A stretch of DNA of 64,000 nt from Amoebidium appalachense (Eukaryota > Protista > Ichthyosporea), in contig CAVNZM010000001.1 in assembly GCA_963693365.1 (NCBI GenBank), positions 14,618,418 through 14,682,417 of the forward strand. Reading direction: 5' to 3'. The notes under the pieces were generated by a model that saw only the letters and a program-made list of their open reading frames with translations, searched no databases and had not been told where the DNA came from. Position 1 is the first letter of the stretch; each line of letters opens with the position of its first letter. The position numbers were made by a program, and so were the translations under genes. This document shows positions 1,521-57,531 of the stretch, piece after piece.

Positions 1521-2169
1521 CCAAACGCCTACGGATGCACGGATGCGCACTCTCACTCGCACCCACTCTCACCCGCACCCACTCTACATACGCGCCCAAA
1601 CACATATTGGGTGATGGCGAGTGAAAGGTGTGTATGCACCCGTACATGCACATACACACATACAAACGTGTGCACACGCACACAAGGCACACACAAATGT
1701 GCACATACACAGGCACATACATCGCATACACCTACGCCCATGTTTACACGTATGTGCATGCACGCAAAAGATCGCTTGATAGTGGACCTGTTGCCTTAGC
1801 GCACACATGCATTTTCCCACTTTTTTTCATTCCTGTCATCAGTTTTGGCCTTTATGCTGAGGAACAGGCATCTGTAAAATGCACAGAAAGAGAAGAAAAG
1901 AAGGACAATCATTTATACAAGAGGTATCCAGAAAATTGTGCTGATTAAAACACTTGCATACTTCATCTCTCACACACGCGATTAACTGCGATGTATGTTG
2001 TTGGGCATGCATGCACTCACAGGTACACGAACACAAACACACACACACTACGATTTTCATACGTCCACACATGCGTGCATGTACATCTGCCTGCGTGCGT
2101 GCACCACAGACACACATCACATACGCAACACGCGCACGCACATCTACACACACGTGTGTGCGCGCACAC

Positions 2170-2258
<89 letters not shown>

Positions 2259-2539
2259 CGACACCAACAATGACGGTACGCTCGAACCTGCCGAAATGAA
2301 AGCTGCATTTGAGGCTATCGACTACCCCATGAGCATGCAGGATGTCGAAAATCTTTTCAAGGTGTGTGTGTGGGGGGGGGGGGGGGGGTCTGTTTGCGTG
2401 TGCGTGGGGGGGAGGGTTCTGTTTGTGTCTGTGTGGGGGGGCGGGGGTCTGTTTGTGTGTGTGGAGGGGAGTCTGTTTGTGTGTGTGTGTGTGGGTGTGT
2501 GGGTGTGGGTGTGGGTGTTCTATGTGTGTCTGTGTGTGC

Positions 2540-2601
<62 letters not shown>

Positions 2602-2626
2602 AACGCTGGGGTGTTGGTGTGTGTGT

Positions 2627-2657
<31 letters not shown>

Positions 2658-2876
2658 CGGATCTGTCGTCTGATGTATGAGGGTGTGTGGATGTATTGGT
2701 GTACGTGTGAATGTGTGGGTATGTATGGGTAGGTGGTGTGTGTGTGTGCTTGTCAATGTATTCACCAGATATATATATGCATGCACGTACATCCGCTTGC
2801 TTATTTCCATGAGACACACGCCTCACAAGCACCTGCACGCTCACACACACGCTCACACATCACACACACACACGCA

Positions 2877-2969
<93 letters not shown>

Positions 2970-3014
2970 TGCCCGTGCACACACGCACACGCACACAGAA
3001 AAACACATGCCCGT

Positions 3015-3112
<98 letters not shown>

Positions 3113-3236
3113 CGCATGGACCTGAATGGAGATGGAGTGTTGGAGGAGCAAGAACTAGTTCAGTACCTCTGCTCTGCCGAGTTTCAGTCCCGGCCCCTCA
3201 GCTACACCCTACTGGCTTTCCTTGCCAATGGTATTA

Positions 3237-3277
<41 letters not shown>

Positions 3278-3692
3278 CCTCGCCCCCTCCCTCCCTCCTT
3301 TCGTGGGTTTAGGGAGGATGCACATTAGGCTTTTTTTTATTTGTTTTTTTTTTGTTTTTTTTTTTATTGGTTGTTACTCTTTGCCTTTAGCTTTTGTTGC
3401 TTTTTTCACCCTGTGAAGCCCCCCCCCCCCCCCCCCCCCCACCAAAAAAAATAAAAATAAAATAAAATAATAATCTCAACCCTTCCCCCGGCACATCCAC
3501 ACATTTACAAATGTCATCTTTGGCTCCTCGTCTCACCAAATATCTATAACTCTCCGTATCATAATATTGTCTCAAGCGAGCCTATTCATGGGTTCGTCCT
3601 ATTGTGTGCTCATATAGACCAAGCCCGCTCACCACTCAATGAATCACTCGATTGTTCACTCACTCATCCTCCCATTTTTTTCCCTGACACAT

Positions 3693-3758
<66 letters not shown>

Positions 3759-4142
3759 GCGGCCGCACACTCACACACACTCTCATTCGTTCTCACACGC
3801 GCTCATGCACACACACCTACCTGCACACACACACGTACCTACCTGCACACACGAACACATACTCGCACCCATACACGTACATACACGTACACTTCCGCAC
3901 ACATGCACACCTGCCTTTACACATATAGGCAAGCTTGGATTAGATTCGTTGATCAACGACACATACTCCACCGTGGACAGCTTCAGGTCTGCCGAGGGCA
4001 ACCAGGTTTTGAGTGTGACAGACGGTACTACCCCCTCCCCCCCCCTCCCCCCCCCCCCTAAAAAAAATTGCCACTAATATTCCTACTCTTTTTAAAATCT
4101 ATAAAAAAATATGCCATCATACCAGGTACATTTGCACTGATT

Positions 4143-4188
<46 letters not shown>

Positions 4189-4912
4189 CGAGAAAGGGAG
4201 GGGACAGGGGTGTGTGAAAGTGGGGGGGAGGGGGGAGGGGGGTTGCTCTTGTGTGCCAGTATGCCATCTAACGGCCATGTTTCCTGCGTGTTGCTGCAGG
4301 AGAAAAGCAGATGATCGGCAAGTTGATGATCTATGACCGTGTGACGGGGCTGATTGTGGAGGAGTTTATTCCAAAGTACATTAAGATAGGTGCGTACACA
4401 GCCCAGTGTGTGTGGGTGTGGTGGTGGGGGGGATGTATGTGTGTATGGGTGGGTCAGTGGGTGTGTAGGGAAAGCGGGGGGAGGGGGGGAGGGGGGGGGG
4501 GGGGGTAGTGACTGGGTGGACGAGTTGGTGGGTGGGAGGGGAAAGGGGGGGGCAGGGGGGAAGGAGGGTGACTAAGTGGATGGGTGGGTTGGTGGGTGGT
4601 GGGTGTGCTGTGTCTCTGGGTAGTTGTGTACTTGGGGCTCTTTCTCAACAACCGTGTGATAGCATGTGATATGGCCATATTCCGATAGGGCCAAATGGTG
4701 ATCACGCCGGGACGGGTCAGGGAATCGGATAAACTGAAACCCAATGATCTGGTTGGGCCCGAGAATCCCTTTAAAAACTTCGAGCCGTTTGATTGGGACC
4801 GAGATTCCCTCTTAATTTTTTGGGTTATCACTAGTTTGCCAGATGAGTGTAACGAATTTTAGCCCTCCCCTTCCTCACCACAATCTGATGGATTATTACC
4901 CCTTCCCCATCA

Positions 4913-4945
<33 letters not shown>

Positions 4946-5515
4946 TTCTCCCTACAGCTCTCAACCTCATGTACGATGTTTCCATCGTGAAGGGCATCAC
5001 CACCTTCCGTGGTATGAACAGAGTGCTTCGATCCATGTCCCAAAAGGAGGTAAACGGGGAATCAATCTAAACCTCCCCCCCCTTTCCACCGAAAACCCGA
5101 ACGAGAGCCCTCCAAAACTACCCTTCTGTATACGTGCTCACCCACCTTACCCCACCCAACCCCACCTATCCACCTACCCATCCATCCACCCACCGCCATC
5201 GCCACCCTTGCCACTTCCATAACCACCAAGAAAGAAAAAGAGAAAAGGAAAAAAAGGGGGGGGGGGGGGGGGGGGAGGGGGGGGGGGAGGAGGGATTGCT
5301 GTCCACTAAAATGTGTTTGTTGTGTCTGTTCCGCCGGCAACTCAGGTGTGTGTGTGTGCGTGTGCGTGTGCGTGTGCGTGTGCGTGTGCGTGTGTGTGTG
5401 CGTGTGCGTGCACGTGTGTGTGTGTGTGTGTGTATATGTGTGTGGGTGTGTGGGTGTGTGGGTGTGTGTGCGCGCGCGCGTGGGCGTGGGCGTGTGCGTG
5501 TGCGTGTACGTGCGT

Positions 5516-5546
<31 letters not shown>

Positions 5547-6093
5547 GGGGGGGGGGGATCTATGCTAATGTCCATGGGGTGCAGGGAGCCAAGATGGACA
5601 ACCCAGCGTCCAAGAAGAAGATTCCAGACTTCATTGCCACCCATAACGTACATACCCCCCCCCCCCCCCTCCCCCCCCCCCCCCCCCCAGCCCACCCCTG
5701 GGCAAAAATAATAGTAGTATTAATCACAAGAAAGCACCTCTTCCTCAGTTCCCTTTCCCGGTCTACTTCTGAGTTAGAATGCATGCTATCACCTCCCTCC
5801 CTCCCCCTCCCTTCCCCCCATCCCCTCCCCCTCCCCTCCCCTCCCCTCCCCCTCCCCCCCTCCCCCCCTCCCCCCCCCCCCCCCCCCCCCCCCCCCACCA
5901 CCACCACCACCACCACCACCACCGCCGCCGCCGCCGCCGCCCTCCAGCGCCCTTCCTCGTGCAAAAACGTTTTCCCGACGCCTGGCCGATCCAACTACCC
6001 AGCACACTTACTGACCTACCGGTTTCCCTGCCTACACAACCATTTAGGACTTTCCCCGTCGCCTCTTCCACTCACCGGGCTCCTAATACCCTT

Positions 6094-6124
<31 letters not shown>

Positions 6125-6415
6125 CCCCCCTCCTCCCCCTCCTGCATAGAGTTGTCCGTCGTAGACATTGACAAAGTATTCTGTAACACATTCTTACCTG
6201 CCGTCCCTTACCCCTTCTCCTCCCCCCCCCCCATCCCCCCTTTACCTTTCAAAAACTAAAAAAAAAAAAAAAAAAACAAGCTGAACATGGCGGAGGTACT
6301 GGACCCATTGGAGGCCTTCCCCCACTTCAACGCCTTCTTCTACCGCAAGCTCAAGCCTGATGCCCGCCCAATCACGGCACTGGTCAGTGTTTCCCCTTCC
6401 CCCGCCCCCCCCCCC

Positions 6416-6454
<39 letters not shown>

Positions 6455-6510
6455 CTCCCTCCTTTTTTTCCCCCCTTTCTTCTTCTGCCCCCTCCCCCCC
6501 CCCCCCCCCC

Positions 6511-6549
<39 letters not shown>

Positions 6550-7958
6550 CGCAGGGGGGGGGGGGGGGGGGGGGGGGAGGGGCAGCAAAAGAATGCTTTG
6601 TGGCGAAGTTGGGCTTTGTGAGGTTGTGTGTGATACTGTGCATGTGTGGAGGCAGGTGGCCGCTGGTGATGGTGATGTGGGGAGGGGGAAGGTGATAGAT
6701 GAGGGAAGGGAGTTTGGAGAGAGAGAGACAGGAGGGGATGCTCGTTTTTCGTGGGGAACATAAATGGAGAACTGTAGTTTCCCTCTAATGATGCCTAGTT
6801 ATGTTCAAAAAAGGTTTCTTCAGGAAATTCGGGTCGGGTCAGATCCGAAAGAGACATACCTTTTCTGATTGGCGAGATGCGCATCTAAGAGCATTTTGGT
6901 CTGCCCCGGAAGGTCCCAAAAATCGGCCTAAAAGAAACCTCCTTTAAGTTTTTGCTCATGGAAAGGGTGCGGGTTACAGGATGACCCAACGGTGGTGGTC
7001 TCGCCTGCTGACTGCCGTATGACCGTGTTCCCAACAATCATGGACGGTGGGTGCAAGCGGTGTGCGGATGTGCGCACGTGCCTGCACGTGCACGCACGTG
7101 TGTCATTAAACATGTGTGGGTGATGGGCAGAGAAACACGTACGGGCGTGTGCATTGCATGATGTTCGTTAAAATGCGTGGGTGGTAGAGCAGGGAGACGC
7201 ATGCAGGTGTGCATGCACATTCCTGAGTACAAGCGCAACATGCACACAAAACACAGGTGTTCTCGAGCGCACATGCAAACAGAAAATACATCTCTATTGC
7301 TTCTCTTCGTCTTCTCACCCCTCGGCTGCCGTTTTCCACACTGAGCACCAGAGAGTGAAGAAGGTCTGAAAGAAGAAAAAGGGGAGAGGGGGAAGGGCGG
7401 GGGGGGGGGGGGGGGGGGGGAGGATAGTTGGTAAAGCCTGACAATATATGGGCACAGCCACGACGTTGTGGATTAAGGGGTCAGAGTTCACTATCGACGG
7501 TTTGCTTGGGCCCAGGGCTGCAGAGCTGGCCCCCCAGGTATATCTCCCTGTGTGGGTATCTCGGCAGGAAAATATCTACTCTTTTCAGATATTACAAGGG
7601 AGTCTGATACTCGGGACGGTTTGTATTTTTTTATTTTTTTTTTATTTGTTTGTTTTGTTGGGGGGGGGGGGGGAGGGGGAAGGGGGGAAGGGGGGAGGAG
7701 CAGTCGGGCGTGCAAAGGGAAGAGTTTGTCGGCCATTGGTGTTAATGTGTTGCTTTGTTGTTTCCTTTGGCTTCGCGGTTATTTTGATCCGCTTCTTTTT
7801 TGTGTTTGTGTGCGTTCTCTCCAAGGGGGAAACTGAAGGAAGGCCCCATTCTTGTCCGTTCCATTTTTTAGGGGGATTCATCAATAAGCTTGGCCAATCA
7901 CACACATCTGCACACCCAGGTCTCTCCACGCATGCTCTTCCCCCCCCCCCCCCCCCCA

Positions 7959-7989
<31 letters not shown>

Positions 7990-8125
7990 ACCCCTCTTCT
8001 CAACGCTACGCTGGTATTGTTGTGTGTGCTGACACCGGTCTCTCCCTCAGTTCTATGGCGGGTCTCTCTGCATTGCCCGGCTTGCCCCACAGGACTACCA
8101 CAGATGGCACAGCCCGGTACGCCAT

Positions 8126-8214
<89 letters not shown>

Positions 8215-8718
8215 ACACACACGGCCCGTGGGGCATTGCGGCTGCCTAGCTTAGGCTCAATATTGTGTACAACACTCTCAAACCCCCCTTCCCCCCCCTC
8301 CCCCCATTTCCCCACCCACACGTATTCAGACTGATGCTAGTAATAGTGAGTAGGAGGAGGAGGATAGGAGAGTAAAGCAAGTAGAGGTCAATTAAGCACA
8401 GACATGCACACGTAGGATCCCCCCCCCCCCCCCCCCCCCCCCCTTCCCCCCCCCAAAAAACCCCCACCCACCCCTTCCCCCTCCGACGTTTCCACCCACA
8501 CTGACACTCACTCTTTCTCTCTTTCTCTTTCCCCTCCCCCCCCCCCCCCCCCGTCCAAACAATAAACGGATGAGCTCTACAATATGTTGTAGTTTGCATG
8601 CCCTTTGGCTCCTGGGCACACATGCAGGCACACGACATGCATACACTGCTTTCTTCCAGACTTACTTTATCACTACACACACAACACACATGCGCGGGCA
8701 CGCACGCACGCACGCGCG

Positions 8719-8811
<93 letters not shown>

Positions 8812-9170
8812 AACGGGCACTCTGGGTCTTCGTACACCGATTTCCGGAGAGCTCTACACGGTCAATCCCGTTGCAGTCCGCCAGCCCCTTAACGTCTACA
8901 CAGAAAACAAGAGGTTGCCCTCACAACCATTTCCTCTGTTGCTGGATCACTATTCATGCTTGTGGACACTGTACTAGCATGTGTGCATGTGTAAACTTCT
9001 TAGGCATACATGTTGATGCGCGTACAAACATGCGCCCACGCGCACACACATACACACAGAGAGATAAAGAGATCTGGGCTCAGCACACGGTGGTTACACG
9101 CACCCACGTCCATCAGGGAACCTGGAACACACCTGAAACACAAATACACGCGCGTGTACGCGTGTTGTAT

Positions 9171-9212
<42 letters not shown>

Positions 9213-9351
9213 GCACGCACGCACGCACGCACGCACACATGCACATGCACATGCAAACATACACACACATACATACAGCCCCAATACCCCCATCTCACCT
9301 GGCAGCTCAGCATGTGAAACTTATCCCTGTCACAAAAAAGTGCACTCTTGA

Positions 9352-9394
<43 letters not shown>

Positions 9395-9817
9395 CCCCCC
9401 CCCCTCCCCTCTCCCCTCCGCCCCTCCTTCTTTCCCGTTACTTTTTCTTCTTTTCTTTCTTGTGCCCTTTTAGGTTTTTATCCTTTTTTTTTTTTTTGGG
9501 ACATGCCTGGGTGAGCAGGGAGGTGTGTGAGATCCACACGGATGTGTTTGGTCTGGTGGTGATGATTGCTGTGGGGGCCACCATGGTTGCCATCATCCTT
9601 TCTTTATTATCCAATTAATTTTTTAACATATTTTAACTTACTTTTTAAAAATGGCTGGGTGAGCAGGGAGGTGTGTGAGATCCACACGGATGCGTTTGGT
9701 CTGGTGGTAATGATTGCCGTGGGGGCCACCATGGTCGGGTCCATCGTCATCACCGCAAAGGACGGAACAAAGGTGTGTGTGTGTGTGTGCGCGCGCGCAC
9801 GCGCGCGCGTGTGTGCG

Positions 9818-9849
<32 letters not shown>

Positions 9850-10147
9850 CATGTGTGTGCCCGGGTGCACGTACGCGCGTGTGTGTGAACGTGTGCTTTA
9901 GGGCTGTTGCTCTTAGCTTTCTTTGTTTCTTCACTGCACGTCTGAATGGAGTATTCGCCGGAAAATTCCTTTTTCCCTTCTTCCATCTTCTTGTTGTTTT
10001 TCCTTTTTTCCCCACTGCCCCCCCCCCCCCCCCCCCTTCTCCTTCCGAACCCATCTTTCTACCATCCCACCTCGCCCACCGATCACCCATGCTCCCCCCT
10101 CCCCCCCACAAAACACACACACACTCACACACACACTCACACACACA

Positions 10148-10182
<35 letters not shown>

Positions 10183-10718
10183 TGACCCACCTTTCCCCCG
10201 TTTCCTTTTTTTCTCTCCAGGTTATAGTGCTTTAATGCTAATTATATTTTCTGGTGTGCAACAGATCACCAAGGGCGACGAGCATGGGTACTTTGCCTTT
10301 GGAGGTTCGACTATCTTGCTCCTCTTCCGCCCTGGCACCGTTCAGGTAGCTGTGCCTATATTTCCCCCCCCCCCCCCCAGCTTTCTCGCCACACACCCGC
10401 ACATATACCGTGGCGTTCACTCCTCTCACATACTCTTCATCATCACTAAAAAGATCAACACTCCCTAGTCCCCCACTCTATCCCGATCCTCCCCCCCCCC
10501 CCCCCTCCCCCCCCCTACCAGCCCCTACACCTCTCCCCTTGGGCCCTCCCTGAGGATGGGCTCTGCTTATGACGCATACTGTGCGCATGGCTGATTTTGC
10601 ATACTTGAATGTTTGCCTTTGCATGTGTCCTGCACCATGCTTCTCATCGTGTATGCGTACTTCGTACCGTGTTCCGCATTCAACCCCCCCCCCCCCCCCC
10701 CTCCCCCTCTCTCTCCCT

Positions 10719-10758
<40 letters not shown>

Positions 10759-11395
10759 GTCTGTCTGTCTGTCTGGCTGGCTGGCTGTCTCCCTCTCTCT
10801 CTCCCTTTCGTTCTCTCCCTCTCTCTCTCTCTCTCTCCCTCTTCCCCTCTCTCCCTCCTCCTCCCCCCCCCCTCTCTCCCCCCGCTCCTTTTCCCAAACA
10901 ATTTCCCCGCCGTTCTTCTTTCTCAGCCGGCTAGGTTTTGGGTTGCCTGGTAAGTTTGGAAATGGAGCTCTCGTCTCTGATCTGTCCACCACACGGTTTT
11001 TTTTTGTTTTTGTTTTTTTTATTTTATTCTTCTCCTCTCTCTCTCTCTCTCTCTCTCTCCCCCCCCCCCCCCCCCCCCCTTTCCCCCCTCCCTCCCTCCC
11101 CCTCCCTTCGCCCTTCGCCCTTCGCCCTTCCCCGGCCTACTCCCCCCCCCCCCCCCCCCCCCCCCTTCCCCTCCTACCTTCTTCCCCCCCCCTTCTCCCC
11201 CCCCCCCCCCCCCCCCCCCCCTTCCCCCTCCTCCTTCCCCTCCCATTTTCTCTGCACACTCAACAGGTCTTGACCAGCTCTGCACATCGTTAGTCACAAT
11301 CTTCTCTCATATATGAGAGAATGATCGTATTGGTACGATTTGTCTTATATCTGACGATTCTGCAGCATCCCTAAGACCCCCCTCCCCCTCCCCTC

Positions 11396-11441
<46 letters not shown>

Positions 11442-12376
11442 TTTTCTCTCTCTCCGTCTTTTTTTTTTTTTTTTTTTTTTTGGGCGCCTGTTGTTTTGCT
11501 TGTCATTTGTTGTTCTGGTTGATTACCTGTAATCTTCGCTTATTTATGTGTGTGTGTGTATGTATGTATGTTGTGCGGGGTTGCACACACTGGTGTCTAC
11601 TTTTCTTCCTACTGTTTTTCTCTCCACACACTTCATCTGTCCACTTCTGCATACCCCCTCTCATAGCTATAGACACACTTTACACATTGCGTTACGCGCA
11701 CGCATGCACACACCGCTCTGTTGGCGACAGCTCCCTTGGAACCCATGCGGCATGTTACCCGCCGGCGTAACATAACTCGGACTATCCATTTGGCTTTTTT
11801 CAAGCCCAAAGCAATGGGTGATACCATATTTCCGGCTGACATCCGGGGGCAAAGCTTTCCGTTCGAAGACGTTAAAGTTCCGCCCTAGTAAGCGTGTTAC
11901 TACCCTGCGGCGTGGGTCAAATCTCATATTTTCCCCTCTGATTGCGAATTCTGCGGCCTTCGGGACTTAATTCTTTTCAGCTGGTGTAGTATGTTAGCCA
12001 GGGAAGTATCGACTTAGGTGGCGACGGGGGAGCTTTCTAGAAGCCCCGTCTCCTGAGTTCCTATCTATTTTCTTCTTGCTTCTGCTTACTGCTGCAACTT
12101 TAACCCCCGGCCTTTCCCACTGCCCTTGCCTGCATAAGCAACCCTGCTCGTCTCTGATCAAGACAGGTGACCTACCCATGTTCAAGTGAAACAGTATCTG
12201 AGTTGGGTTTCGTTAACGAGGTGAATAGGTCGAAACTCGGATACTGTGGATGACGTGGGCCCCCCCTGAGGATGGGCTCTGCTTATTATGCATCCTCTTT
12301 ATGTATGGCTTGCATTCTGCATCGTGTTATCTGTTTGTTCTTGTGTACTTCGTACTTTTTGACGCATTCAAACCCC

Positions 12377-46406: not shown

Positions 46407-47412
46407 CCTCGTGAGGTTGATAACATAATCCTTCGTCAGGTTCAACTCTGGCAGATGGATTTCGGCACTGAATGTGGTGTCGGTGGAGGCTGTGGATGGT
46501 GGGGAGAGATTGAGAGGGGGGTTGTGGTGGTGGTTGGTGGGGCAGGGGGGGGGGGGGGGGGGGGGGGTTAGAATGAATCGCAGAGTGGAAAACCAGGAAT
46601 TCATGACGAAAAACACAATGCAGAGATTGCAGAGCACACATATAGAGGATGCATCATAAGCGGTACATCATAAGCGGTGCCTCCGGAGCGAAGAGGTGTG
46701 TGTGTGTGTGTGTGGGGGGGGGGGGGGGGTTTTGAATGCGTCAAAAAGTACGAAGTACACAAGAACAAACGGATAACACGATGCAGAATGCAAGCCATAC
46801 ATAAAGAGTATGCATAATAAGCAGAGCCCATCCTCAGGGGGGGCCCACGTCATCCACAGTACCCGAGTTTCGACCTATTCCCCTCGTTAACGAAACCCAA
46901 CTCAGATACTGTTTCACTTGAACATGAGTAGGTCACCCGTCTTGATCAGAGACGAGCAGGGTTGCTTATGCAGGCAAGGGCAGTGGGAAAGGCCGGGGGT
47001 TAAAGTTGCAGCAGTAAGCAGAAGCAAGAAAAATATAGATAGGAACTCAGGAGACGGGGCTTCTAGGAAGCTCCCCCGTCGATACCTAAGTCGATACTTC
47101 CCTGGCTAACATACTACACCAGCTGAAAAGAATTAAGTCCCGAAGGCCACAGAATTCGTAATCAGAGGGGAAAATATGAGATTTGACCCACGCCGCAGGG
47201 TAGTAACACGCTTACTAGGGCGGAACTTTATCGTCTTCGAACGGAAAGCTATGCCCCCGGATGTCAGCCGGAAATATGGTATCACCCATTGCTTTGGGCT
47301 TGAAAAAAGCCAAACCGATAGTCCGAGTTATGTTACGCCGGCGGGTAACATGCCGCATGGGTTCCAAGGGAGCTGTCGGGGGGACTTTAGAATGTGGAGC
47401 ACGGGGAAGAAG

Positions 47413-48028: not shown

Positions 48029-49109
48029 CTGTTGTGATCGAGCCTTAATATGGCAAAAGAGTATCACGGAGTTTGATCGAAGAGGCCTTGTTGCAGAGCT
48101 CGGCGCATTGTACATGCAGGTCTAGGAAGTATGCACGGGAAGTGGGAAAACCAAGGCAAAATGACGACAAAGATAGAACGAAAATAAAGAGTTGCCCATT
48201 GAAATGGGCAGGTATAACATACTTGAGAGGAGAGAAGTGGCGTACTGGGTTATGAGGCGGGATGGAAAGAGCGCCTGAATGGGCCCCGGGGGGGGGGGGG
48301 GGGGGGGGTTTGAATGCGTCAAAAAGTACGAAGTACACAAGAACAAACGGATAACACGATGCAGAATGCAAGCCATACATAAAGAGTATGCATAATAAGC
48401 AGAGCCCATCCTCAGGGGGGGCCCACGTCATCCACAGTACCCGAGTTTCGACCTATTCCCCTCGTTAACGAAACCCAACTCAGATACTGTTTCACTTGAA
48501 CATGAGTAGGTCACCCGTCTTGATCAGAGACGAGCAGGGTTGCTTATGCAGGCAAGGGCAGTGGGAAAGGCCGGGGGTTAAAGTTGCAGCAGTAAGCAGA
48601 AGCAAGAAAAATATAGATAGGAACTCAGGAGACGGGGCTTCTAGGAAGCTCCCCCGTCGATACCTAAGTCGATACTTCCCTGGCTAACATACTACACCAG
48701 CTGAAAAGAATTAAGTCCCGAAGGCCACAGAATTCGTAATCAGAGGGGAAAATATGAGATTTGACCCACGCCGCAGGGTAGTAACACGCTTACTAGGGCG
48801 GAACTTTATCGTCTTCGAACGGAAAGCTATGCCCCCGGATGTCAGCCGGAAATATGGTATCACCCATTGCTTTGGGCTTGAAAAAAGCCAAACCGATAGT
48901 CCGAGTTATGTTACGCCGGCGGGTAACATGCCGCATGGGTTCCAAGGGAGCTGTCGCCAACAGAGCGGTGTGTGCATGCGTGCGCGTAACGCAATGTGTG
49001 AAGTGTGTCTATAGCTATGAAAGGGGGTATGCAGAAGTGGACAGATGAAGTGTGTGGAGAGAAAAACAGTAAGAAGAAAAGTAGACACCGGTATGTGCAA
49101 CCCCGCACA

Positions 49110-49345: not shown

Positions 49346-50193
49346 GGAGAGAGGGAGAGAGAGAGAGAGAGAAGGTGGGGGGGGGGGGGGGGGGGAGGGG
49401 AGGGGAGGGGGAGGGGGGTCTTAGGGATGCTGCAGAATCGTCAGATATTAGACAAATCGTACCAATACGATCATTCTCTCATATATGTGAGAAGATTGTG
49501 ACTAACGATGTGCAGATCTGGTTAAGACCTGTTGGGTGTGCAGAGAAAATGGGAGGGGAAGGAGGAGGGAAAGGGGGAGGGGGTTTTGAATGCGGAACAC
49601 AGTACGAAGTACGCATACACGATGAGAAGCATGGTGCAGGACACATGCAAAGGCAAACATTCAAGTATGCAGCATCAGCCATGCGCACAGTATGCGTCAT
49701 AAGCAGAGCCCATCCTCAGGGAGGGCCCAAGTCATCAATTGCGTCTGAGTTTCGACCCCTTAGCCCGCGTATATACGACGCTCCAACTCAGACAGCAGCA
49801 TCAACTGAACTTGGGTGGGTCAACCCGTCTTGATCAAAGACGAGCAGGGTTGCTTATGCAAGCAAGGTGAGCAAAACGGTGAAGATGTATGTGCAAACTA
49901 ATGCAGTGCGGAAAGGGGGAGGGGGGGGGGGGAAGTAAGAGAGGGGAGGGAATGTTAGAGTGTCAGTAGTCTCAGGGGACCCTGCAGAGTCGTTAGATGT
50001 CAGACAAAAACGCACCAACGACCAAGTTCTCCGAGGGGAGAAATGCGTAAAACGTTCTGCAGAGTGGGTTAGAGACCTGCTGATGAGAAGAGTGTATACA
50101 GGGTTTGGCCAGGGGGGGGGGGGGGGGGGGGGGGAAGGGGGGGAAAAAGAAGGTAGGAGGGGAAGGGGGGGGGGGGGGAGGAGAAGGGGAAAG

Positions 50194-50319: not shown

Positions 50320-53300
50320 CTGTGGTGGACAGATCAGAGACGAGACCTCCATTTCAAAACTTACCAGGCAACCCAAAAAACCTAGCCGGCTGAGAAAGAA
50401 GAACGGCGGGGGAATTGTTTGGGAAAAGGAGCGGGGGGAGAGAGAGAGGGGGGGGGGGGGGGGGGGGGGAGGGGGGGAAGGGGGGGGGGAGAGGGGGAGA
50501 GAGGGGGAGAGGGAGAGAGAGAGAGAGGGAGGGAGAGAACGAGAGAGAACGAAAGAGAGCGAGAGAGGGAGACAGAGAGAGAGAGAGGGAGGGAGAGAGA
50601 GGGAGAGGGAGAGAGAGAGGGAGAGAGAGAGGGAGGGGGGGGAGGGGGGGGGGGGGGGGGGGGAGGTGTAGGGGGCTGGTAGGGGGGGAGGGGGGGGGGG
50701 GGGGGGGGGAACCGGGATAGAGTGGGGGACTAGGGAGTGTTGATCTTTTTAGTGATGATGGAGAGTATGTGAGAGGAGTGAACGCCACGGTATATGTGCG
50801 GGTGTGTGGCGAGAAAGCTGTGCATTTTGTGGTGCAAGAGTCTAAACGAGTAGCCTTTGTTAAGCAATGTTTTAGCAAGTCGTGCAGTGCATGTGGTGAA
50901 TGCAGCAAGTGTGGAGCATTTGCGCTGGTAGCTATGCATTTGACTTGTCATGATGCCGTATTTTGCAGTGCGGGAGATGAATGAGTCGTGATGTGGGAAA
51001 CGAACGATGTCTAGTGTATTGAACGTGGGTGTGTCGAGCTTGTTGTAGATGGTTGTGTGAATGCCGTGATTAGTGCAGGTGATATGCAAGTCGAGGTAGG
51101 GGACAGAGGGGGAGGAACCGGCAGGGTTGAGTTGAAGGCTGGTCTTGGGATATAGACCGAAATCACAATCTTCTAAATAGAGGTGGGAGAGAATGCGAGG
51201 ATTATGAAGGGAGATCAAATCATCTATGTAGCGGCGAGTAAACTGAAAATCTACCAAGACATCAATGCGTTCGTGTGCAATAAGCTTGCGAACAAAATCC
51301 AACTCATAAGTAAAGAGATAGAAATTAGCCAAGAAAACAGCACAGTTTGTACCCATGGGGATACCAATGTCCTGTTTGTAGAGGGTATCGCCAAACACAA
51401 CATATATGTTATCTACGAGGAAACATAGAAAATCCACAAGCTGTGCCTTAGAGAGATGTAGAGAGTGTTCTTTAGGCTCAAAGGAATCATCCTGGGAATC
51501 ATCATCTACACGATCCACCCAGGACAACGTGGAGCCGGTTTTCTTAATAAACATGTGTGGTTTGCGAGCGTCCGTGCATTTTTTGACAAATATTGCGTCA
51601 ATCAGTGTAGTGAGGCGAGCTTTCAAATCATGCAAGTCAATCTTGGTGTAGAGTGTGGAAAAATCAAACACAGACACGGGCGTATTTTCGTGTTGGCGTG
51701 TGGTACGGTTAAGGGCGTTGATTGTGTGTGTGAGTGCGGTGCTATCCGTGAGAATCCAAGAGCTAGTGTTGTGTGGCAGGTGGGGTTTGACAACATCACA
51801 CCACATACGTTCGACATCAGGGGAGACGAACTTAAACACACTAGTGAGAAGGCGGGAGAGAGGTTCAAGTGATGTGGCAGAGGAGTTGGCAATGAAACGG
51901 AAGGTGGGTGGTGTTTTGTGCATTTTAACTATGGCCTGAAATGTGGGCAAGCGTGCAGTGCGACGTCCTGGTGTGCCTTTTATGTCATGTGTTTTGAGAA
52001 ATGCAAGGTGTTGTGCAACAATGTCTTTTGGTGCAGTGTTGCAGACGGTGTATGTTGCGGCAGGTGCATGCAGTTCGGCTGTAATGCTGCTAACGTAGTG
52101 TTTTTTGCAGACGATCACGAACGTGTTGCTAGCTTTATCCATTGTGGTGACTACGAAACGTTTTTGGAAGCGACGCAGTAGAAGCACAGAAGCTTGTGGT
52201 ACGGTGTGTGTGTTGGGTGCGTGTTGTGCATATGGCAGGAAGGGGCGACACTTAGTAAAGACGGCGGCTGCCCACGGATTCAAAGAGGGATAAGCTGCCA
52301 TACCAAGATCGTACATCTTGTTACAGAAACTTTGCAACGCCTGTGTCAATAAATTGCTACAGGTGGTGTCCTCCGTCTGCTCGACCTGCATTCGGAACTT
52401 GGTTCCAAAATGCATGAGCGATGCAAAGTCTGCGGGCAGGCCGGGAATGTCTAAGCGCGATGTAAGCACGTGTCCGTGTTGTGGGTGTACGTATGGCGCA
52501 TAGTGCGGGTCGTTGCAAGGGCAGGGTTGTGCATGGATGTTTGCTATGGTGTCCTGCGGGAGTCGTGCGGTGTGTTTGCAGTTGATAGTGGTGTAGCCCA
52601 GGGTAGACACATATTTCCACACAGCAGAGATACGGAATTTACGCATTTCAAGCGGCAGGAGAGCATGTATTTCTTTGTCTTTGATGATGCGTTGCAAAGG
52701 GATTCTATCGAGCCCGGAGTTATGAAACACAGACACCAACATCACATGAGGTTGCGACATGTCAACACGTTCAAGTTCAAAACGACTACGTAATTCACGT
52801 TTGAGGCACGCAGCAATCTGTGAAAGGCGAGGTTGAGCAATGCCGGTGGGGAAAGCAAGGAGGTGCTCCTTCATCCTAACGATGTTGGAGGTGTTAAAGC
52901 GGTGTAGATATGCAGAGGAAAAGATACCACGAGACATAAGACTATCGATGTGCAGTAGGCGGCGTGTGAAGCAGCGCGAAAGAAACATGCGTGAGGGGTG
53001 TATAGGAGGCAGGTTGAGTGCAGGTGCAGGTGCAGGTGCAGGAGAGGGTGGAGGGGGTGTAGGAGGGGGTGTGTTGTGGAGAGCAAGCCGTGCACGCATA
53101 TACAGCATGGGGTTGTGCACACGTGTAAAACGATTGCGCGATTGGCGGTGGCTTCGGTATTGCGAATTATAGCCGGTAGTAGGTACGTGTGCTTGCAGTA
53201 TGTGAGTCCAGAAACGTTCCCTAGCGAGACGCTGCGTTTTATCAGTGTCAGCGTTTGTGCGTGGAAGCTGTTCGATTGGAAACATAATGAAGCTCTCGTG

Positions 53301-54644
53301 CCCGGACTTAGCCATATCCCAGTAGAGTGGACGGTTGTGCTCTTTGTGCTTGAAAAGAGCCCATTTTCTACTGTTTTGCGAATGCCGCTGGAATCTTTCA
53401 AAAGCGGATTTGCTAGTTTCACCAACGTAGCACCTGCCAATCGTTTTGTGAAACACAACATAGATGACGTTGGTGTCGTGAATAGGATGTAGTGCATGCT
53501 TGGTGAGGGAGTGTTTGAGTTGCAGACGCCAGAGACGTTTAAGCATGGGGTGAGTGTGATTCAGGACGGTGTTTGTGTAGGGACCTGCAAGTTGTTGCCA
53601 TGAGATGGTGCGAGGGGCGTTGGTGTAAGCATGTGAGGTGTTGTGTGCATTGTAGAAAGCAGACACGTGTTTGCGGCTAAGTTGGCGAGAGTGGCGTTGT
53701 GTGGAAAACGTTTCCCTTGGTGGAGCCACACCTCCACCGAAGGGGCCAGATCCGAGAACGGTTGGAGCCAATCGAGCGCATTTGCCAACACCATATCGAG
53801 CGCTCTCTCCCCCCCAAAGGGGAAAGCGATATAGATATATGGGGGGGGGGGGGGGGGGGAGGGGGGGGGAGGGGGGAGAGGGGGATGGGACAAGAGCAAA
53901 GGGAGGGGAATTGTTTACAACGGGTTATAGAGAACGAAATACACATTCATACAACATCATGCAGAGCACAAGCCACATAAAGAGTATGCATAAAAAGCAG
54001 AGTCCGCCCTCTCGAGGGAGGGAGGGGGGGGGGGGAGAGGGGTGGAAGGGGATGGGGGTGGGTGTGTGTGTGTGTGTGTGTTGGAGGAGGGGGGGGGGGG
54101 GGGGGGGGGGGGGGATGTTACCAGGCACGGTGTACCGGTAGATGAGCACATAGGGCTCCTCTCTAGCCTCCAGGTCGCCTACGGGCTCGAAACTGATGGT
54201 GGGGGTGTCTGAACTCCGCCGCCGGGCAGTTTTCACCATCGACCTCAGCTTCTGCCCACTGAAGAAAATGCAGGATGGGTGGTTAGACTTAAAGCACTCA
54301 AACCATGTTTGGGTGTTGTTCTTAGAGTCTATAGATTGTGTCACCAGAACCGTTGCTGCACAAAAAAGAGGGAGGGAAAGGAAACATACGTGGTAGGAAA
54401 TGGTGAACGGGTAAAGGAGGTAGGATGCGCTAGGGCGGGACAAGATAGATACAACGGAGTGTAGGGCAAGATACGATAACTACAAGAGAGAGGTGCAGAG
54501 GTGAAAGGCAAGATATGATGGCCTATAACACTTTTTTGGCCATCAGGGCAAGATAGCTACAACAGAGGCACAGTTCAATGGCTCCTCTATCTCCTTTGTC
54601 TTTACACAATACAACCAATGAGCTTATCTGAAACTCTGTCTCGT

Positions 54645-54683
<39 letters not shown>

Positions 54684-57531
54684 CCTCTCCCCCCCTCCCC
54701 CGCGCACTGAATCAGCCATCATTCCGGCTCCTCCATTCATCCTTCCCTACATACACAGAGCCAAATTCCACTTTGTGCCAAATTTCGCTTTCGCAAATTC
54801 CACTTTGAGCCAAATTTCGCTTTCGTTTTTTTTAATTAAGGTCTATGCCGGGGTTTCTCGATTATGTCGTAATTTATAATAAATGTGATGTCATTGATGA
54901 TGTCACGAATTTTAAATGACGTCACCGGATCACGGACAGTGTGGACTGGATATGGGCACCACTGGATATGGGCACATCTGGATATGGGCACCTCTGGCGG
55001 TCGACCCGCCCGATCGGGTCGAGTCGGGCCGGGCTTTGACCCGACCCTGATATTCGGGTCAGATTCGGGTCAACCAATCGGATGCGTGCATTTTACTTTT
55101 GGCGCGCTCCCAACTTGGCGCGCTGGCTCTGCCGGCCCATTCTGTAACGTGTACGTTCCGGTTCGTCTTCACTTCTCGTTTCGTATCACTGTGTTTGGTG
55201 CTCTTTTCAAGTTTTCACTGGAGCCAAAAGTTTTTTTTCAAGTTTTCACTGGAGTCAAAAGTTTTTAAGTAACTGTAACACGGGATACGTATGTATACAC
55301 CTTTCACCACCTACTTCTTTTACTTCTTACCTTTTTACCTCTTTATCCTTATTCCTCCTCATTCTCCTCCTGGTTCTCACTGGTGCAGCAGTTAGAATGG
55401 CGTACTTTAAAGCGTCTAATATCAGGTATGAAAAAGCCCAGGAAAAAGCGTTTAAAAAGCGCATGCAAGGGGCTTCCAAAAAGGGTCTCAAGAAGAGCAA
55501 GTCAATAAAGCGCCTTTCTCTGGAAGATAGGCTCGATATCATTAAGCGTGTTCGGGCGGGGCAGTCGCATTCGAAAGTGGGTGAAGCGTATGGTGACAGT
55601 GCGCTTGCGCAAGTTGGCCCCCTAAACCACAGATCGATTAGATCTCCCTAAACCCAAAAGTGCCCGTCCGACCTGGTGCCCATATCCAGTCCACACCGTA
55701 CATTGTGGCTCACCAGCCTATGCTCATGAGGCCCTTGCAAAAATATCCCGAATATCTTTTGATATTCAGGGGGCAATTCGATATATGATATATCTCGTGT
55801 TATTCAGAGATTAGGCAGGATATATCGAATGATATTCAGGGGACGGACCAAAAAATGACTTATCATATAAATCTTTCAGGGCATGATATATCACGGCTTT
55901 ATAAACGGGATATATCCCTTGTTTTCAGTGTAAAAATATGTGATAAACTCAACAAAAAGTTACAGAAAACTCGTAATTCACACTTCCTGCACTACCAAAT
56001 CCTGCCTTTTAGCCTAAAAAGGGCCTAAAAGCGACCAGATTGCTTCGGATTGCTCTTAAATTAACGACCTTGGGATATATGCTCTCTGAATGGATCTCAC
56101 AAAAATAGCGGATATCGAAACAAAATTTCGTTTATTTCCTTATTTGGGTTAAAATCAAGATATTTTTCGCGATATTCAGGGCAAAATATCGGGATATTTC
56201 GATTTGATATTCAGGTCAACGTCGAGATATTTATTTGATATATCCCGTGATGTTCAGGGGCCTTCAAGATATTTTCAAATGATATTCAGGGGCTTGCCGG
56301 GATACTTTTGTGATATTCATGGCAACATTCGATATTTTCGTGATATATCCTGAATGATATTCAGGGCAAAAATCGGGATATTTTTGCAAAGGCCTACAGC
56401 CGAAGCCGATAAAACTGCGAGCACTGATTGGTAATTGCCATATATGAAATGTTCGTTTTAGGAAAGTCCGGACATGGATAAAAAATTACGTCACGATCGA
56501 GAAAGGAGAAAGGCCGACATAGTCGGTAAGTTGGTTTTCTGTGTTCTTCCTCTACTCCGTTTCTCTCCCTCCCTCCCTCTTCCTCCCTTTCTTCACCCCC
56601 CCCCCCCCCCCCCCCCAAAACTCTACAATCGAACCAGCTACTTCCATCGAACCACATTAAACATGCAAGTGCAAAGATTACTTTATGCCCACACACGGAT
56701 GCAATTTACCTTTTTTTCCCCTCACCCTTCTCTCCGCCACCTTTCTAGCACTCTTCTCACTCTAACCATTGCTTCCCTTTCTTTAGACTACCTCCTGCCC
56801 AGAGTGTTTTAAACTTTACTTTGCTCCCCCGCTTCTTCTCCCTTAACCATCACTTTCTTCCATCCCTTTCTCCTCATAGCAAGGGTCAGGCTATAGAATC
56901 CAAGATTTAATGAACAAGGCATGCAATGTAAGCACTACACATACAAGATGCAGCAAAATAAGGGCCATTCCTCCACTCTCGGGGGGTGGGGTGGGGTGGG
57001 GTGGCGGGGGGGGGGGGGGGGGGGGGGGGGCACTACGGGTCACAACAGCAGGACAAGAAACAGGACGCAGGACGCAGGACACATGCAAAAGCAAAGTTTC
57101 CAGTAAATGCAACACCAGCAACGCAGTACGTGCGGTTTAGCAGAACCCATCCTTGGGGGGGAGCCAAGAGAGAGGGCGAGAGAAGGGCTAAGGGGGAAGG
57201 AGGGAGAGAGAGGTGGAGTCCTTGTTTCAAGTTGCCCCCGTTGGACGGGGGGGGGGGGGGGGTACAGTGGCAAGGAAAGAAGTGCAAAGTACACAGGCAT
57301 GACCGGGGGAGCGGAGGGGGGAGGGGGAGGGCGCACAGAGAGAGGGGTGGGGGGGTACCTGAGTTCGGTGAAGCCCTTGACGGAGCTGTTCACTTTGACG
57401 TATATCGTCTGCTCCACGGGGGTGCCCTCCTTCAAGACGGCCCTCTCCGGTGACGTCACCAGAGATATCTTGCCTCCGCCTGGCGGAAACGCGTATTCGA
57501 TGGGCTCCATGCCCGGTCCCGCAATCACCAT
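46407..57531 (-). CDS. Exons of an unidentified protein, possibly the N-terminus of the giant repeat gene
   Basis: Phase-compatible GT-AG exons 57531-57359 (MVIAGPGMEPIEYAFPPGGGKISLV..KGFTELS), 54258-54136 (GQKLRSMVKTARRR..EEPYVLIYR) and 46467-46407 (AEIHLPELNLTKDYVINLTR). Weaker candidates lie at ~48117-48066, ~47781-47704, ~45537-45491 and ~44409-44350. Confidence 0.6.
46568..46696 (-). mobile_element. Diverged short PLE 3' tail
   Basis: Minus strand reads ..CGCTTATGATGCATCCTCTATATGTGTGCTCTGCA..CATTCTAA then a C-run, resembling the tail at 12280-12372. Confidence 0.6.
46730..47377 (-). mobile_element. 5'-truncated PLE copy (modules 3 and 1A plus tail)
   Basis: Essentially identical to 48309-48955; flanked by G-runs on the + strand on both sides. 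Confidence 0.92.
48620..48955 (-). ncRNA. Candidate structured RNA 'module 3' (~335 nt)
   Basis: Many nested stems: AGCTCCC/GGGAGCT, ACCCATGC/GCGTGGGT, ATGTTAC/GTAACAT, CTCGGA/TCCGGG, GGGC/GCCC, AGTAA/TTACT. Copies at 11726-12060 and 47042-47377. Confidence 0.45.
49417..49534 (-). ncRNA. Candidate structured RNA 'module 2', variant 2'
   Basis: GGTCTT/AAGACC, CTGCA/TGCAG, ATCGTTAG/CTGACGAT and TTCTC/GAGAA stems. Copy at 11261-11378; paralog at 49968-50083. Confidence 0.55.
49699..49859 (-). ncRNA. Candidate structured RNA 'module 1', variant B
   Basis: Same architecture as 1A with CCCAAG/CTTGGG, GTCTGAGTT/AACTCAGAC and pseudoknot GACCC/GGGTC. Confidence 0.6.
49968..50083 (-). ncRNA. Candidate structured RNA 'module 2'
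   Basis: GGTCTC/GAGACT, CTGCAGA/TCTGCAG, CGTT/AACG and TTCTCC/GGAGAA stems; diverged paralog of 49417-49534. Confidence 0.55.
50730..53771 (-). CDS. PLE polyprotein: GIY-YIG endonuclease followed by reverse transcriptase
   Basis: NVIY..CYVGET..RFQRH..ERFW..GYN (GIY-YIG); CPC..HGHVLT; MDKASN, KMHK..FRFI, FDFSTLYT, GIPMGTNCAVFLAN, RYIDD, YLDL (PLE-type RT). No stops in 1013 codons. The track start is TTG; the first in-frame ATG is at 53546 (938 aa). Confidence 0.95.
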   Translation of the reverse strand: MAPTVLGSGPFGGGVAPPRETFSTQRHSRQLSRKHVSAFYNAHNTSHAYTNAPRTISWQQLAGPYTNTVLNHTHPMLKRLWRLQLKHSLTKHALHPIHDTNVIYVVFHKTIGRCYVGETSKSAFERFQRHSQNSRKWALFKHKEHNRPLYWDMAKSGHESFIMFPIEQLPRTNADTDKTQRLARERFWTHILQAHVPTTGYNSQYRSHRQSRNRFTRVHNPMLYMRARLALHNTPPPTPPPPSPAPAPAPALNLPPIHPSRMFLSRCFTRRLLHIDSLMSRGIFSSAYLHRFNTSNIVRMKEHLLAFPTGIAQPRLSQIAACLKRELRSRFELERVDMSQPHVMLVSVFHNSGLDRIPLQRIIKDKEIHALLPLEMRKFRISAVWKYVSTLGYTTINCKHTARLPQDTIANIHAQPCPCNDPHYAPYVHPQHGHVLTSRLDIPGLPADFASLMHFGTKFRMQVEQTEDTTCSNLLTQALQSFCNKMYDLGMAAYPSLNPWAAAVFTKCRPFLPYAQHAPNTHTVPQASVLLLRRFQKRFVVTTMDKASNTFVIVCKKHYVSSITAELHAPAATYTVCNTAPKDIVAQHLAFLKTHDIKGTPGRRTARLPTFQAIVKMHKTPPTFRFIANSSATSLEPLSRLLTSVFKFVSPDVERMWCDVVKPHLPHNTSSWILTDSTALTHTINALNRTTRQHENTPVSVFDFSTLYTKIDLHDLKARLTTLIDAIFVKKCTDARKPHMFIKKTGSTLSWVDRVDDDSQDDSFEPKEHSLHLSKAQLVDFLCFLVDNIYVVFGDTLYKQDIGIPMGTNCAVFLANFYLFTYELDFVRKLIAHERIDVLVDFQFTRRYIDDLISLHNPRILSHLYLEDCDFGLYPKTSLQLNPAGSSPSVPYLDLHITCTNHGIHTTIYNKLDTPTFNTLDIVRFPHHDSFISRTAKYGIMTSQMHSYQRKCSTLAAFTTCTARLAKTLLNKGYSFRLLHHKMHSFLATHPHIYRGVHSSHILSIITKKINTP
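54937..55698 (+). mobile_element. Internally deleted pogo/Tigger-like DNA transposon
   Basis: 25-bp TIRs C[A/G]GTGTGGACTGGATATGGGCACCA, TA on the right flank, three CTGGATATGGGCAC repeats at the left end, and a truncated HTH ORF. Confidence 0.8.
55397..55651 (+). pseudogene. Truncated transposase N-terminus (CENP-B/psq-type HTH)
   Basis: KRLSLEDRLDIIKRVRAGQSHSKVGEAYG resembles the pogo/Tigger first HTH; the ORF runs into the right end with no DDE domain. Confidence 0.7.
55729..56395. mobile_element. AT-rich MITE-like element
   Basis: 23-bp TIRs AGGCC[C/T]TTGCAAAAATATCCCGA and multiple internal GATATTCAGG(G) repeats near both ends; non-coding; no clear TSD. Confidence 0.75.
57030..57168 (-). 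mobile_element. Diverged B-type PLE 3' tail
   Basis: CTTGGCTCCC..AGGATGGGTTCTGCT..TTGCTTTTGCATGTGTCCTGC aligns with 10538-10683 and 49584-49731; ends in a C-run. Confidence 0.7.

Follow-up and report, generated by a model that had tools for sequence, protein, structure and literature searches.

The window, a 64,000-nucleotide stretch of Amoebidium appalachense DNA, carries a Chlamys-type Penelope-like retroelement together with copies of a structured RNA motif that fall into two sequence families, A and B. The features of the element and its motif copies are as follows.

50730-53924, minus strand: stop-to-stop open reading frame (ORF) of 1064 aa with N-terminal GIY-YIG, CxC, DKA, and reverse transcriptase (RT), of a Chlamys-type Penelope-like element
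49699-49859, minus strand: family B copy, whole motif, 161 nt, a predicted split-core, noncircularly permuted hammerhead
48395-48549, minus strand: family A copy, probably the 3' (putative) ribozyme belonging to the RT element itself, U17 at 48477
46817-46971, minus strand: family A copy, U17 at 46899
12132-12286, plus strand: family A copy, U17 at 12204
10538-10696, plus strand: truncated family B copy, reduced to the 3' portion of the motif plus the tail
49584-50111, minus strand: 528-bp family B piece (upstream module, motif, and 3' tail), absent from the related copy at 10684-11454

Residues 153-205 of the ORF match the Pfam GIY-YIG model (E = 4e-4) at 21.1 bits, just below the 22.6 cut-off, and the CPC and DKA motifs are present. 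Residues 440-960 have 215 homologues, and a 938-aa protein (source, eukprot) is identical to the ORF across the searched region. None of the Naiad CX2-5CxxC linker, CCHH finger, or GIY-YIG cysteine pair was found in the 1064-aa ORF, unlike four related loci (L018, L021, L026, and L062) in which the cysteine motif is present. In a 64-row, midpoint-rooted tree containing no named reference, the window element was placed outside the clade with the Naiad-motif loci. The combination of GIY-YIG, CPC, DKA, and RT with poly-C insertions and without Naiad zinc-finger motifs fits Chlamys elements as they are described in the available text of PMC8557442. Among contigs from public DNA runs, 5,711 lay over the B stretch (run X7) and 10,497 over the A stretch (run X2); thousands of contigs over both motifs reflect high-copy repeats, although the counts are not copy numbers.

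The coordinates of the four motif copies given in the original prediction, which was made from the letters of the window, were all borne out. Copy B is nested: the 528-bp insert is missing from the related copy at 10.4-12.4 kb, its site is a poly-C tract in the 3' untranslated region of a family A element, and it is likely 5' truncated. Families B and A share ~81% identity over 179 nt, and the motif ends ~103 to 114 nt before the element 3' end, in line with the position near that end first proposed. Two minus-strand fragments, 57074-57168 and 53953-54011, are additional 3' ends from this element group, truncated and diverged, and each begins inside the 3' part of the motif.

A second structured module, ~150 nt long, lies upstream of the putative ribozyme (49935-50115 and 49405-49580 on the minus strand, 11216-11395 on the plus strand). 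Its helices are kept in both families despite diverging sequence, and a comparison with Rfam gave no match. A CUGACGA in this module was considered as a core and rejected, because by eye it appears to form one strand of a helix and to have no GAAA partner.

Several window features are unrelated to the motif. At 17203-42764 on the minus strand, a pair of neighboring, very long ORFs (stop to stop, 4645 and 3943 aa) is built from repeats of 9 aa (27 bp) among which a longer spacer recurs periodically, and the opposite strand is also open for ~4000 codons. On the plus strand at ~1900-10400, short exons are separated by (CA)n-rich introns; these exons resemble, judging from motifs, what we take to be an EF-hand phosphatidylserine decarboxylase, and a retroelement fragment starts at 10378, directly after one of them. 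At 54700-56200, a distinct repeat-like stretch that contains short direct repeats as well as an ORF of 167 aa (55148-55651) is possibly the end of another mobile element.

A hammerhead core in noncircular order

The segments of copy B are listed below in the 5'-to-3' order of the minus strand, with core nucleotides named by hammerhead numbering.

49851-49857, minus strand: 5' strand of closing helix P1, pairing with 49699-49705 (seven invariant pairs, probability 0.75 to 1.0)
49847-49849, minus strand: 5' strand of helix IV (CCC), pairing with the GGG after A9 at 49709-49711
49824-49844, minus strand: hairpin V, with a palindromic tip UGAUCA at 49831-49836
49817-49821, minus strand: 5' strand of stem II from G10.1 (49821), the strand first assigned to a pseudoknot
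49806-49815, minus strand: 5' strand of tie helix T, pairing with 49726-49734
49800-49805, minus strand: bulged strand of a kink-turn consensus with its partner at 49735-49737, a sequence pattern only
49786-49799, minus strand: 5' strand of stem III, ending in U16.1 (49786)
49785, minus strand: U17 of a GUU triplet, with cleavage predicted 3' of it by analogy with the hammerhead core
49781-49784, minus strand: 5' strand of stem I (GGAG), pairing with CUCC at 49720-49723
49765-49779, minus strand: variable hairpin VI, joining the stem I 5' strand to the stem II 3' strand
49750-49758, minus strand: 3' strand of stem II to C11.1 (49754), then G12 A13 A14 A15.1 (49753-49750)
49738-49749, minus strand: 3' strand of stem III
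49713-49719, minus strand: core C3 U4 G5 A6 G7 G8 A9

All 15 hammerhead core positions are present in both window families, in the four copies (on the minus strand for B). The original prediction had judged that the motif does not fit the hammerhead consensus; this judgment did not hold, as the full core is found in the motif. The hammerhead blocks S, G, and C correspond to UCUGAGUU-GG, GGUC-GAAA-CUC, and CC-CUGAGGA and stand in a noncircular order. Along the chain, the strands run II-5', T-5', III-5', cut site, I-5', II-3', GAAA, III-3', T-3', I-3', CUGAGGA. The strand that begins with G10.1 thus lies upstream of the cut site instead of after A9, and the G10.1-C11.1 pair is formed. The pseudoknot described at the outset is stem II, which contains this pair; its change from GACCUA/UAGGUC to GACCC/GGGUC is present between the families and turns a U-A pair into C-G. 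Stem I, which is GGAG/CUCC in B and GGG/CCC in A, and the kink-turn consensus had not been recognized in the prediction.

Stem III comprises 13 pairs, of which two are changed on both sides and four on one side; 8 to 12 pairs are contiguous, and U16.1 (49786) pairs with A15.1 (49750). The U-A/U-G variation among copies noted earlier for the long stem is present. Stem I is short, with four pairs in B and three in A (its third pair is A-U in B and G-C in A), which counts against a hammerhead reading, and the cleavage triplet is GUU, a less favored triplet than GUC. Between stem III and helix T, the kink-turn consensus consists of a 3-nt bulge, G.A, and A.G in both families; the bulge letters differ, and 3b,3n is U.U in B and A.G in A. 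Helix IV has three pairs that are invariant within the window and a pair probability of ~0.3, and in our model it is predicted to close the opening between A9 and G10.1. The center of hairpin VI is palindromic in both families, and the replacement of the inner hairpin sequence between families was found as described. Likewise, the four conserved blocks are all present in the copies. For one stem, the description holds in one A copy only: the CCCAUG strand occurs in the copy at 12132, while the other two A copies read CUCAUG.

Structural tests within the window

A hammerhead descriptor applied in six block orders to both window strands gave seven matches. Four of these were the four motif copies, all in the order S-G-C and with the longest stems among the seven. 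The summed paired length (17 in B, 21 in A) was reached by 0 of 20,000 shuffles of either motif. Covariation was assessed at 48 named pairs, excluding the third pair of stem I, which MAFFT had misaligned. Across the three distinct rows, a shallow alignment, 97.9% of cells pair and four pairs are changed on both sides; the score was matched by 7 of 500 shuffles, and partners slid out of register pair in 29 to 40% of cells. Folding z scores were similar on the two strands (-2.46 minus, -2.77 plus), so that energy alone does not choose between them; the minus strand was chosen from the hammerhead core, the G-U pairs, and the orientation of the ORF. We conclude that the structured RNA at 49699-49859 is real, and the proposal of a conserved structured RNA with a pseudoknot at the 3' end of a Penelope-like element is supported.

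Among the 64 Rfam matches listed at E ≤ 1, none lay over any motif copy; the only matches were of the low-complexity, microRNA type. Assignment to hammerhead type I, II, or III was rejected, since the four copies are S-G-C rather than circular in order (CGS, GSC, or SCG) and have no Rfam match. The Rfam models for HDV-like, twister, pistol, and hatchet ribozymes gave no match, which is weak evidence against permuted forms. A SECIS element was rejected because the 1064-aa ORF is open under the standard code and the Rfam SECIS model was unmatched; this reading, a telomerase-like pseudoknot, and a new class were all dropped after stem I was found. In viral contigs, 34 pattern matches included no relative. 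The genomic copies continue through the predicted cut, and none of the window's three truncated copies begins at it.

The same wiring in Naiad loci

Related elements were taken as the best 80 of 524 confirmed stretches. An nhmmer search of these 80 loci with the window motif returned nothing below an E value of 5; as no sequence is shared with the motif, relatives were found through structure. Of the 80 loci, 75 were used for their 3' regions, after 5 with under 100 nt downstream of the RT match were dropped. A descriptor in which stem II takes its 5' strand from upstream gave 13 sense and 0 antisense matches in these 75 regions (shuffle mean, 0.19; maximum, 2). The sense matches comprised five L018-family loci, seven L003-family loci, and L050; the L050 match and matches inside the L006 and L012 ORFs were taken as chance. 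The descriptor was matched in two further loci as well: in L062 at a site past the 1700-nt limit, and in L065 at a site upstream of its ORF.

The same wiring is found in seven Naiad loci from three lineages. The CX2-5CxxC Naiad motif is present in L018, L021, L026, and L062, and L027, L046, and L065 group with them. In the five loci of the L018 family, stem II is 100% paired and five of six pairs change on both sides, with only G10.1-C11.1 fixed, a covariation score reached by 0 of 500 shuffles. In the window and in this family, stem II forms 5 to 6 pairs with the upstream strand and shows covariation. The seven Naiad loci, whose helices are otherwise rewritten, retain all 15 core positions, and their stem I has 5 to 7 pairs (that of L027 is out of register in the L018-family alignment). 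L062 and L065, from other Naiad branches, carry helices IV, II, T, III, and I in the same order. A helix at or just after A9 that pairs with the motif 5' end occurs in the window, the L018 family, L062, and L065. In the L018 family, this helix IV is GGG/CCC in the opposite orientation in all five loci, and its fourth pair fails in three of five Naiad rows. The hinge in this family is a plain bulge of 8 to 10 nt where the window has the kink-turn consensus.

The L003 family, sister to the window element in the tree (support, 0.82), also takes stem II from upstream, but with U10.1-A11.1 and different outer helices, and with less certainty we regard it as a related form. On this Chlamys side, we observed a second S-G-C wiring (L003:5645-5840, L006, L010, L013, L029, L035, and L049) in which CUGAUGA lies in the loop of its own hairpin with a long closing helix; in L004, the cleavage-site block is absent. 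A tandem 3' segment at L020:1500-1906 holds CUGACGA in a hairpin loop, for which the descriptor found no GAAA partner.

The motif is not shown to be universal in the clade. The descriptor was unmatched in 62 of the 75 related 3' regions, many of them short, and two published Chlamys consensi from PMC8557442, with complete or nearly complete entries, showed no such core order when inspected by eye.

Variants in public runs and palindromic loops

In public runs, only C3 and U4 of the 15 core positions of family A were listed as variable, at ≤1.4%. At the fifth stem II pair of family A, the two letters had variant depths of 1433 and 1419 (run X15), 17,384 and 12,095 (X7), and 49,570 and 26,541 (X2), which, with each letter counted separately, is consistent with U-A to C-G variants. 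The adjacent loop V variants A26G and U27C were seen at depths of 3,120 and 3,185 (X7) and 13,107 and 12,882 (X2) and were absent in runs X15 and X14; together, they would swap one loop V palindrome for another. In the L018 family, the loop V tips of all five loci hold palindromes of 6 to 12 nt, each different, with single-locus shuffle P values of 0.20, 0.0016, 0.16, 0.04, and 0.04. Because hairpin tips are biased toward inverted repeats and the loci are related, possible dimerization of the RNA through the palindromic loop tips is a lead only.

Alternative readings of the motif

We consider it probable that the motif is a complete, noncircular hammerhead core at a Chlamys-type 3' end that likely self-cleaves after U17 (49785), with the chain predicted to be open between A9 and G10.1. 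Support for this architecture is good; by analogy with known hammerheads, catalysis is likely. Three other readings were weighed against this one.

The best-surviving of the three, which we nevertheless find unlikely, is a hammerhead-derived scaffold that cuts too slowly or not at all and is kept as a signal for RT binding, packaging, or initiation. A core opened from inside, a short stem I, a GUU triplet, and genomic copies that cross the predicted cut site would all suit such a scaffold. So would results with the Poseidon element of Anolis, whose hammerhead cut only with protein and was dispensable for insertion in vitro, insertion being unaffected by hammerhead mutants (available text of PMC11167929). 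Set against this, both window families and the seven Naiad loci, whose helices are otherwise rewritten, preserve the full set of 15 core positions, a pattern expected of catalysis and unlike that of a generic protein-binding fold. RT binding is possible as a second role of the RNA.

Somewhat less probable again is that an ordinary type SGC hammerhead is the active form, in which the U after A9 is bulged, GGGCUC serves as stem II, and the upstream strand is inhibitory, as in a switch. Penelope hammerheads typically bulge a nucleotide at the 9/10.1 link (PMC4209133). A contiguous stem II with the bulged U and one G.G mismatch could form in the window, reaching -5.6 kcal/mol in B. It is, however, 2.9 to 5 kcal/mol weaker than the duplex with the upstream strand (-8.5 versus -5.6 kcal/mol in B, -7.3 versus -2.3 kcal/mol in A). 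The strand after A9 offers no stem II pairs directly and two after a 1-nt bulge, followed by the G.G mismatch at the third pair. A strict type SGC, with a stem II strand within 1 to 2 nt of CUGAnGA, was rejected on these grounds, the upstream partner being the stronger. Furthermore, the strand after A9 is invariant whereas the upstream strand covaries, and the ordinary arrangement is unavailable in the seven Naiad loci, where the strand after A9 offers 0 to 1 stem II pairs (0 in the L018-family loci).

A new ribozyme class or a noncatalytic pseudoknot with incidental hammerhead-like words, for which the lack of an Rfam match and the presence of extra helices and a kink-turn consensus foreign to the classic fold might speak, is very improbable given that three helices abut the core words according to hammerhead numbering in four lineages and that 0 of 20,000 shuffles match. 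The suggestion of a candidate new ribozyme thus survives as to a likely ribozyme and fails as to a new class, because hammerhead blocks S, G, and C are present; a hammerhead ribozyme in an unusual wiring is the most likely identity of the motif.

Discussion

Eckert et al. (2023) treat the hammerhead as three unbreakable blocks that can be arranged in six permutations (available text of PMC10085705). Their type SGC hammerheads, including HRIMA-1, cleave in vitro at 0.007 to 0.19 per min and contain a helix that ties stems I and II; the examples given in that text are all metatranscriptomic, with none from the genome of a known organism. The window motif resembles type SGC in its order S, G, C, in the link from the stem I 5' strand to the stem II 3' strand, and in a helix that joins the other ends of stems I and II, helix T being the counterpart of the interaction helix; both have a pseudoknotted core with all conserved nucleotides. 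It differs in its location in a eukaryotic retrotransposon and in the fate of block C, which in type SGC is taken as unbreakable, with CUGAnGA followed by stem II within 1 to 2 nt. In the window, G10.1 instead lies ~35 nt upstream of the cut site, and both ends of the chain are located beyond A9, within helices IV and P1. The window motif differs further in the kink-turn consensus that joins stem III to the tie helix.

The wiring would correspond to a circular permutation of type SGC in which the SGC ends are joined and a new opening is made within block C. A9 would be kept next to G10.1 by helix IV together with P1 and hairpin V. In favor of the split-core reading, natural hammerheads tolerate a single extra nucleotide at the 9/10.1 link (PMC3705267, PMC4209133). 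The kink-turn would bend helix T back from stem III toward the far ends of stems I and II, a bend that may replace the usual loop I-loop II contact. The consensus agrees with the standard kink-turn (Huang and Lilley 2016, PMC5061560) in its 3-nt bulge, G.A, and A.G, as a pattern match only; at 3b,3n, family A shares the A.G of Kt-7, and B has U.U. By analogy with other Penelope hammerheads, cleavage could trim tandem or read-through transcripts to element-length RNA, and it may require a protein, either the element's own or an L7Ae-family kink-turn binder.

Like the Penelope hammerheads of PMC11167929, as its available text describes them, the window motif sits in an element terminal repeat, has a U after A9, and contains palindromes, which in those elements are tied to dimers. 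Those hammerheads are circular type I with a minimal stem III, whereas in the window motif the order is noncircular, stem III is long, and the palindromes sit at the tips of peripheral hairpins. In the pseudoknot-containing (PK) hammerhead (Zhan et al. 2024), the helix II region is rebuilt and the core chemistry is kept. A single short stem beneath its pseudoknot loop contains both A9.G12 and G10.1-C11.1, its connectivity resembles that of pistol, and an opening between A9 and G10.1 like that of the window is not described in the available text (PMC11300833). Our literature search, which covered running text mainly outside subscription papers, found no description of the split-core wiring.

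The window element belongs to the same clade as the Naiad and Chlamys elements of Craig et al. (2021), who reported Naiads and most Chlamys to be without a canonical hammerhead (PMC8557442). Their supplement contains 10 "HHR_core" and 8 "HHR_half_core" occurrences, core words that fit no descriptor, and the available text gives no fold for either. Three window motifs of 11 to 12 letters were not found in the supplement text, in which line breaks can hide matches. As a broader and more speculative proposal, which taken as a whole we regard as less likely than not, the motif would be a seventh natural hammerhead wiring beyond the six accepted permutations, its core opened at A9/G10.1 and rebuilt with extra helices and a kink-turn hinge; it would be the ancestral 3' ribozyme of the whole Naiad/Chlamys clade, protein-switched at the kink-turn, and coupled to dimerization by its self-complementary loops.

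If the split-core reading is correct, it would account for Naiad and most Chlamys elements "lacking" canonical hammerheads yet showing stray core words, the motif, predicted to be self-cutting, having been missed by standard searches. The hinge, whether kink-turn or bulge, would suggest how stem III ties to the stem I/II helix, a puzzle in PMC10085705, where, according to the available text, a long distance separates stem III from the interaction helix in the crystal structure although in some cases the two are joined directly. The motif would also break the assumption beneath the six-permutation hammerhead scheme and would place a noncircular ribozyme in eukaryotic genomes, in Naiad and Chlamys retrotransposons whose copies number in the tens of thousands in some of them.
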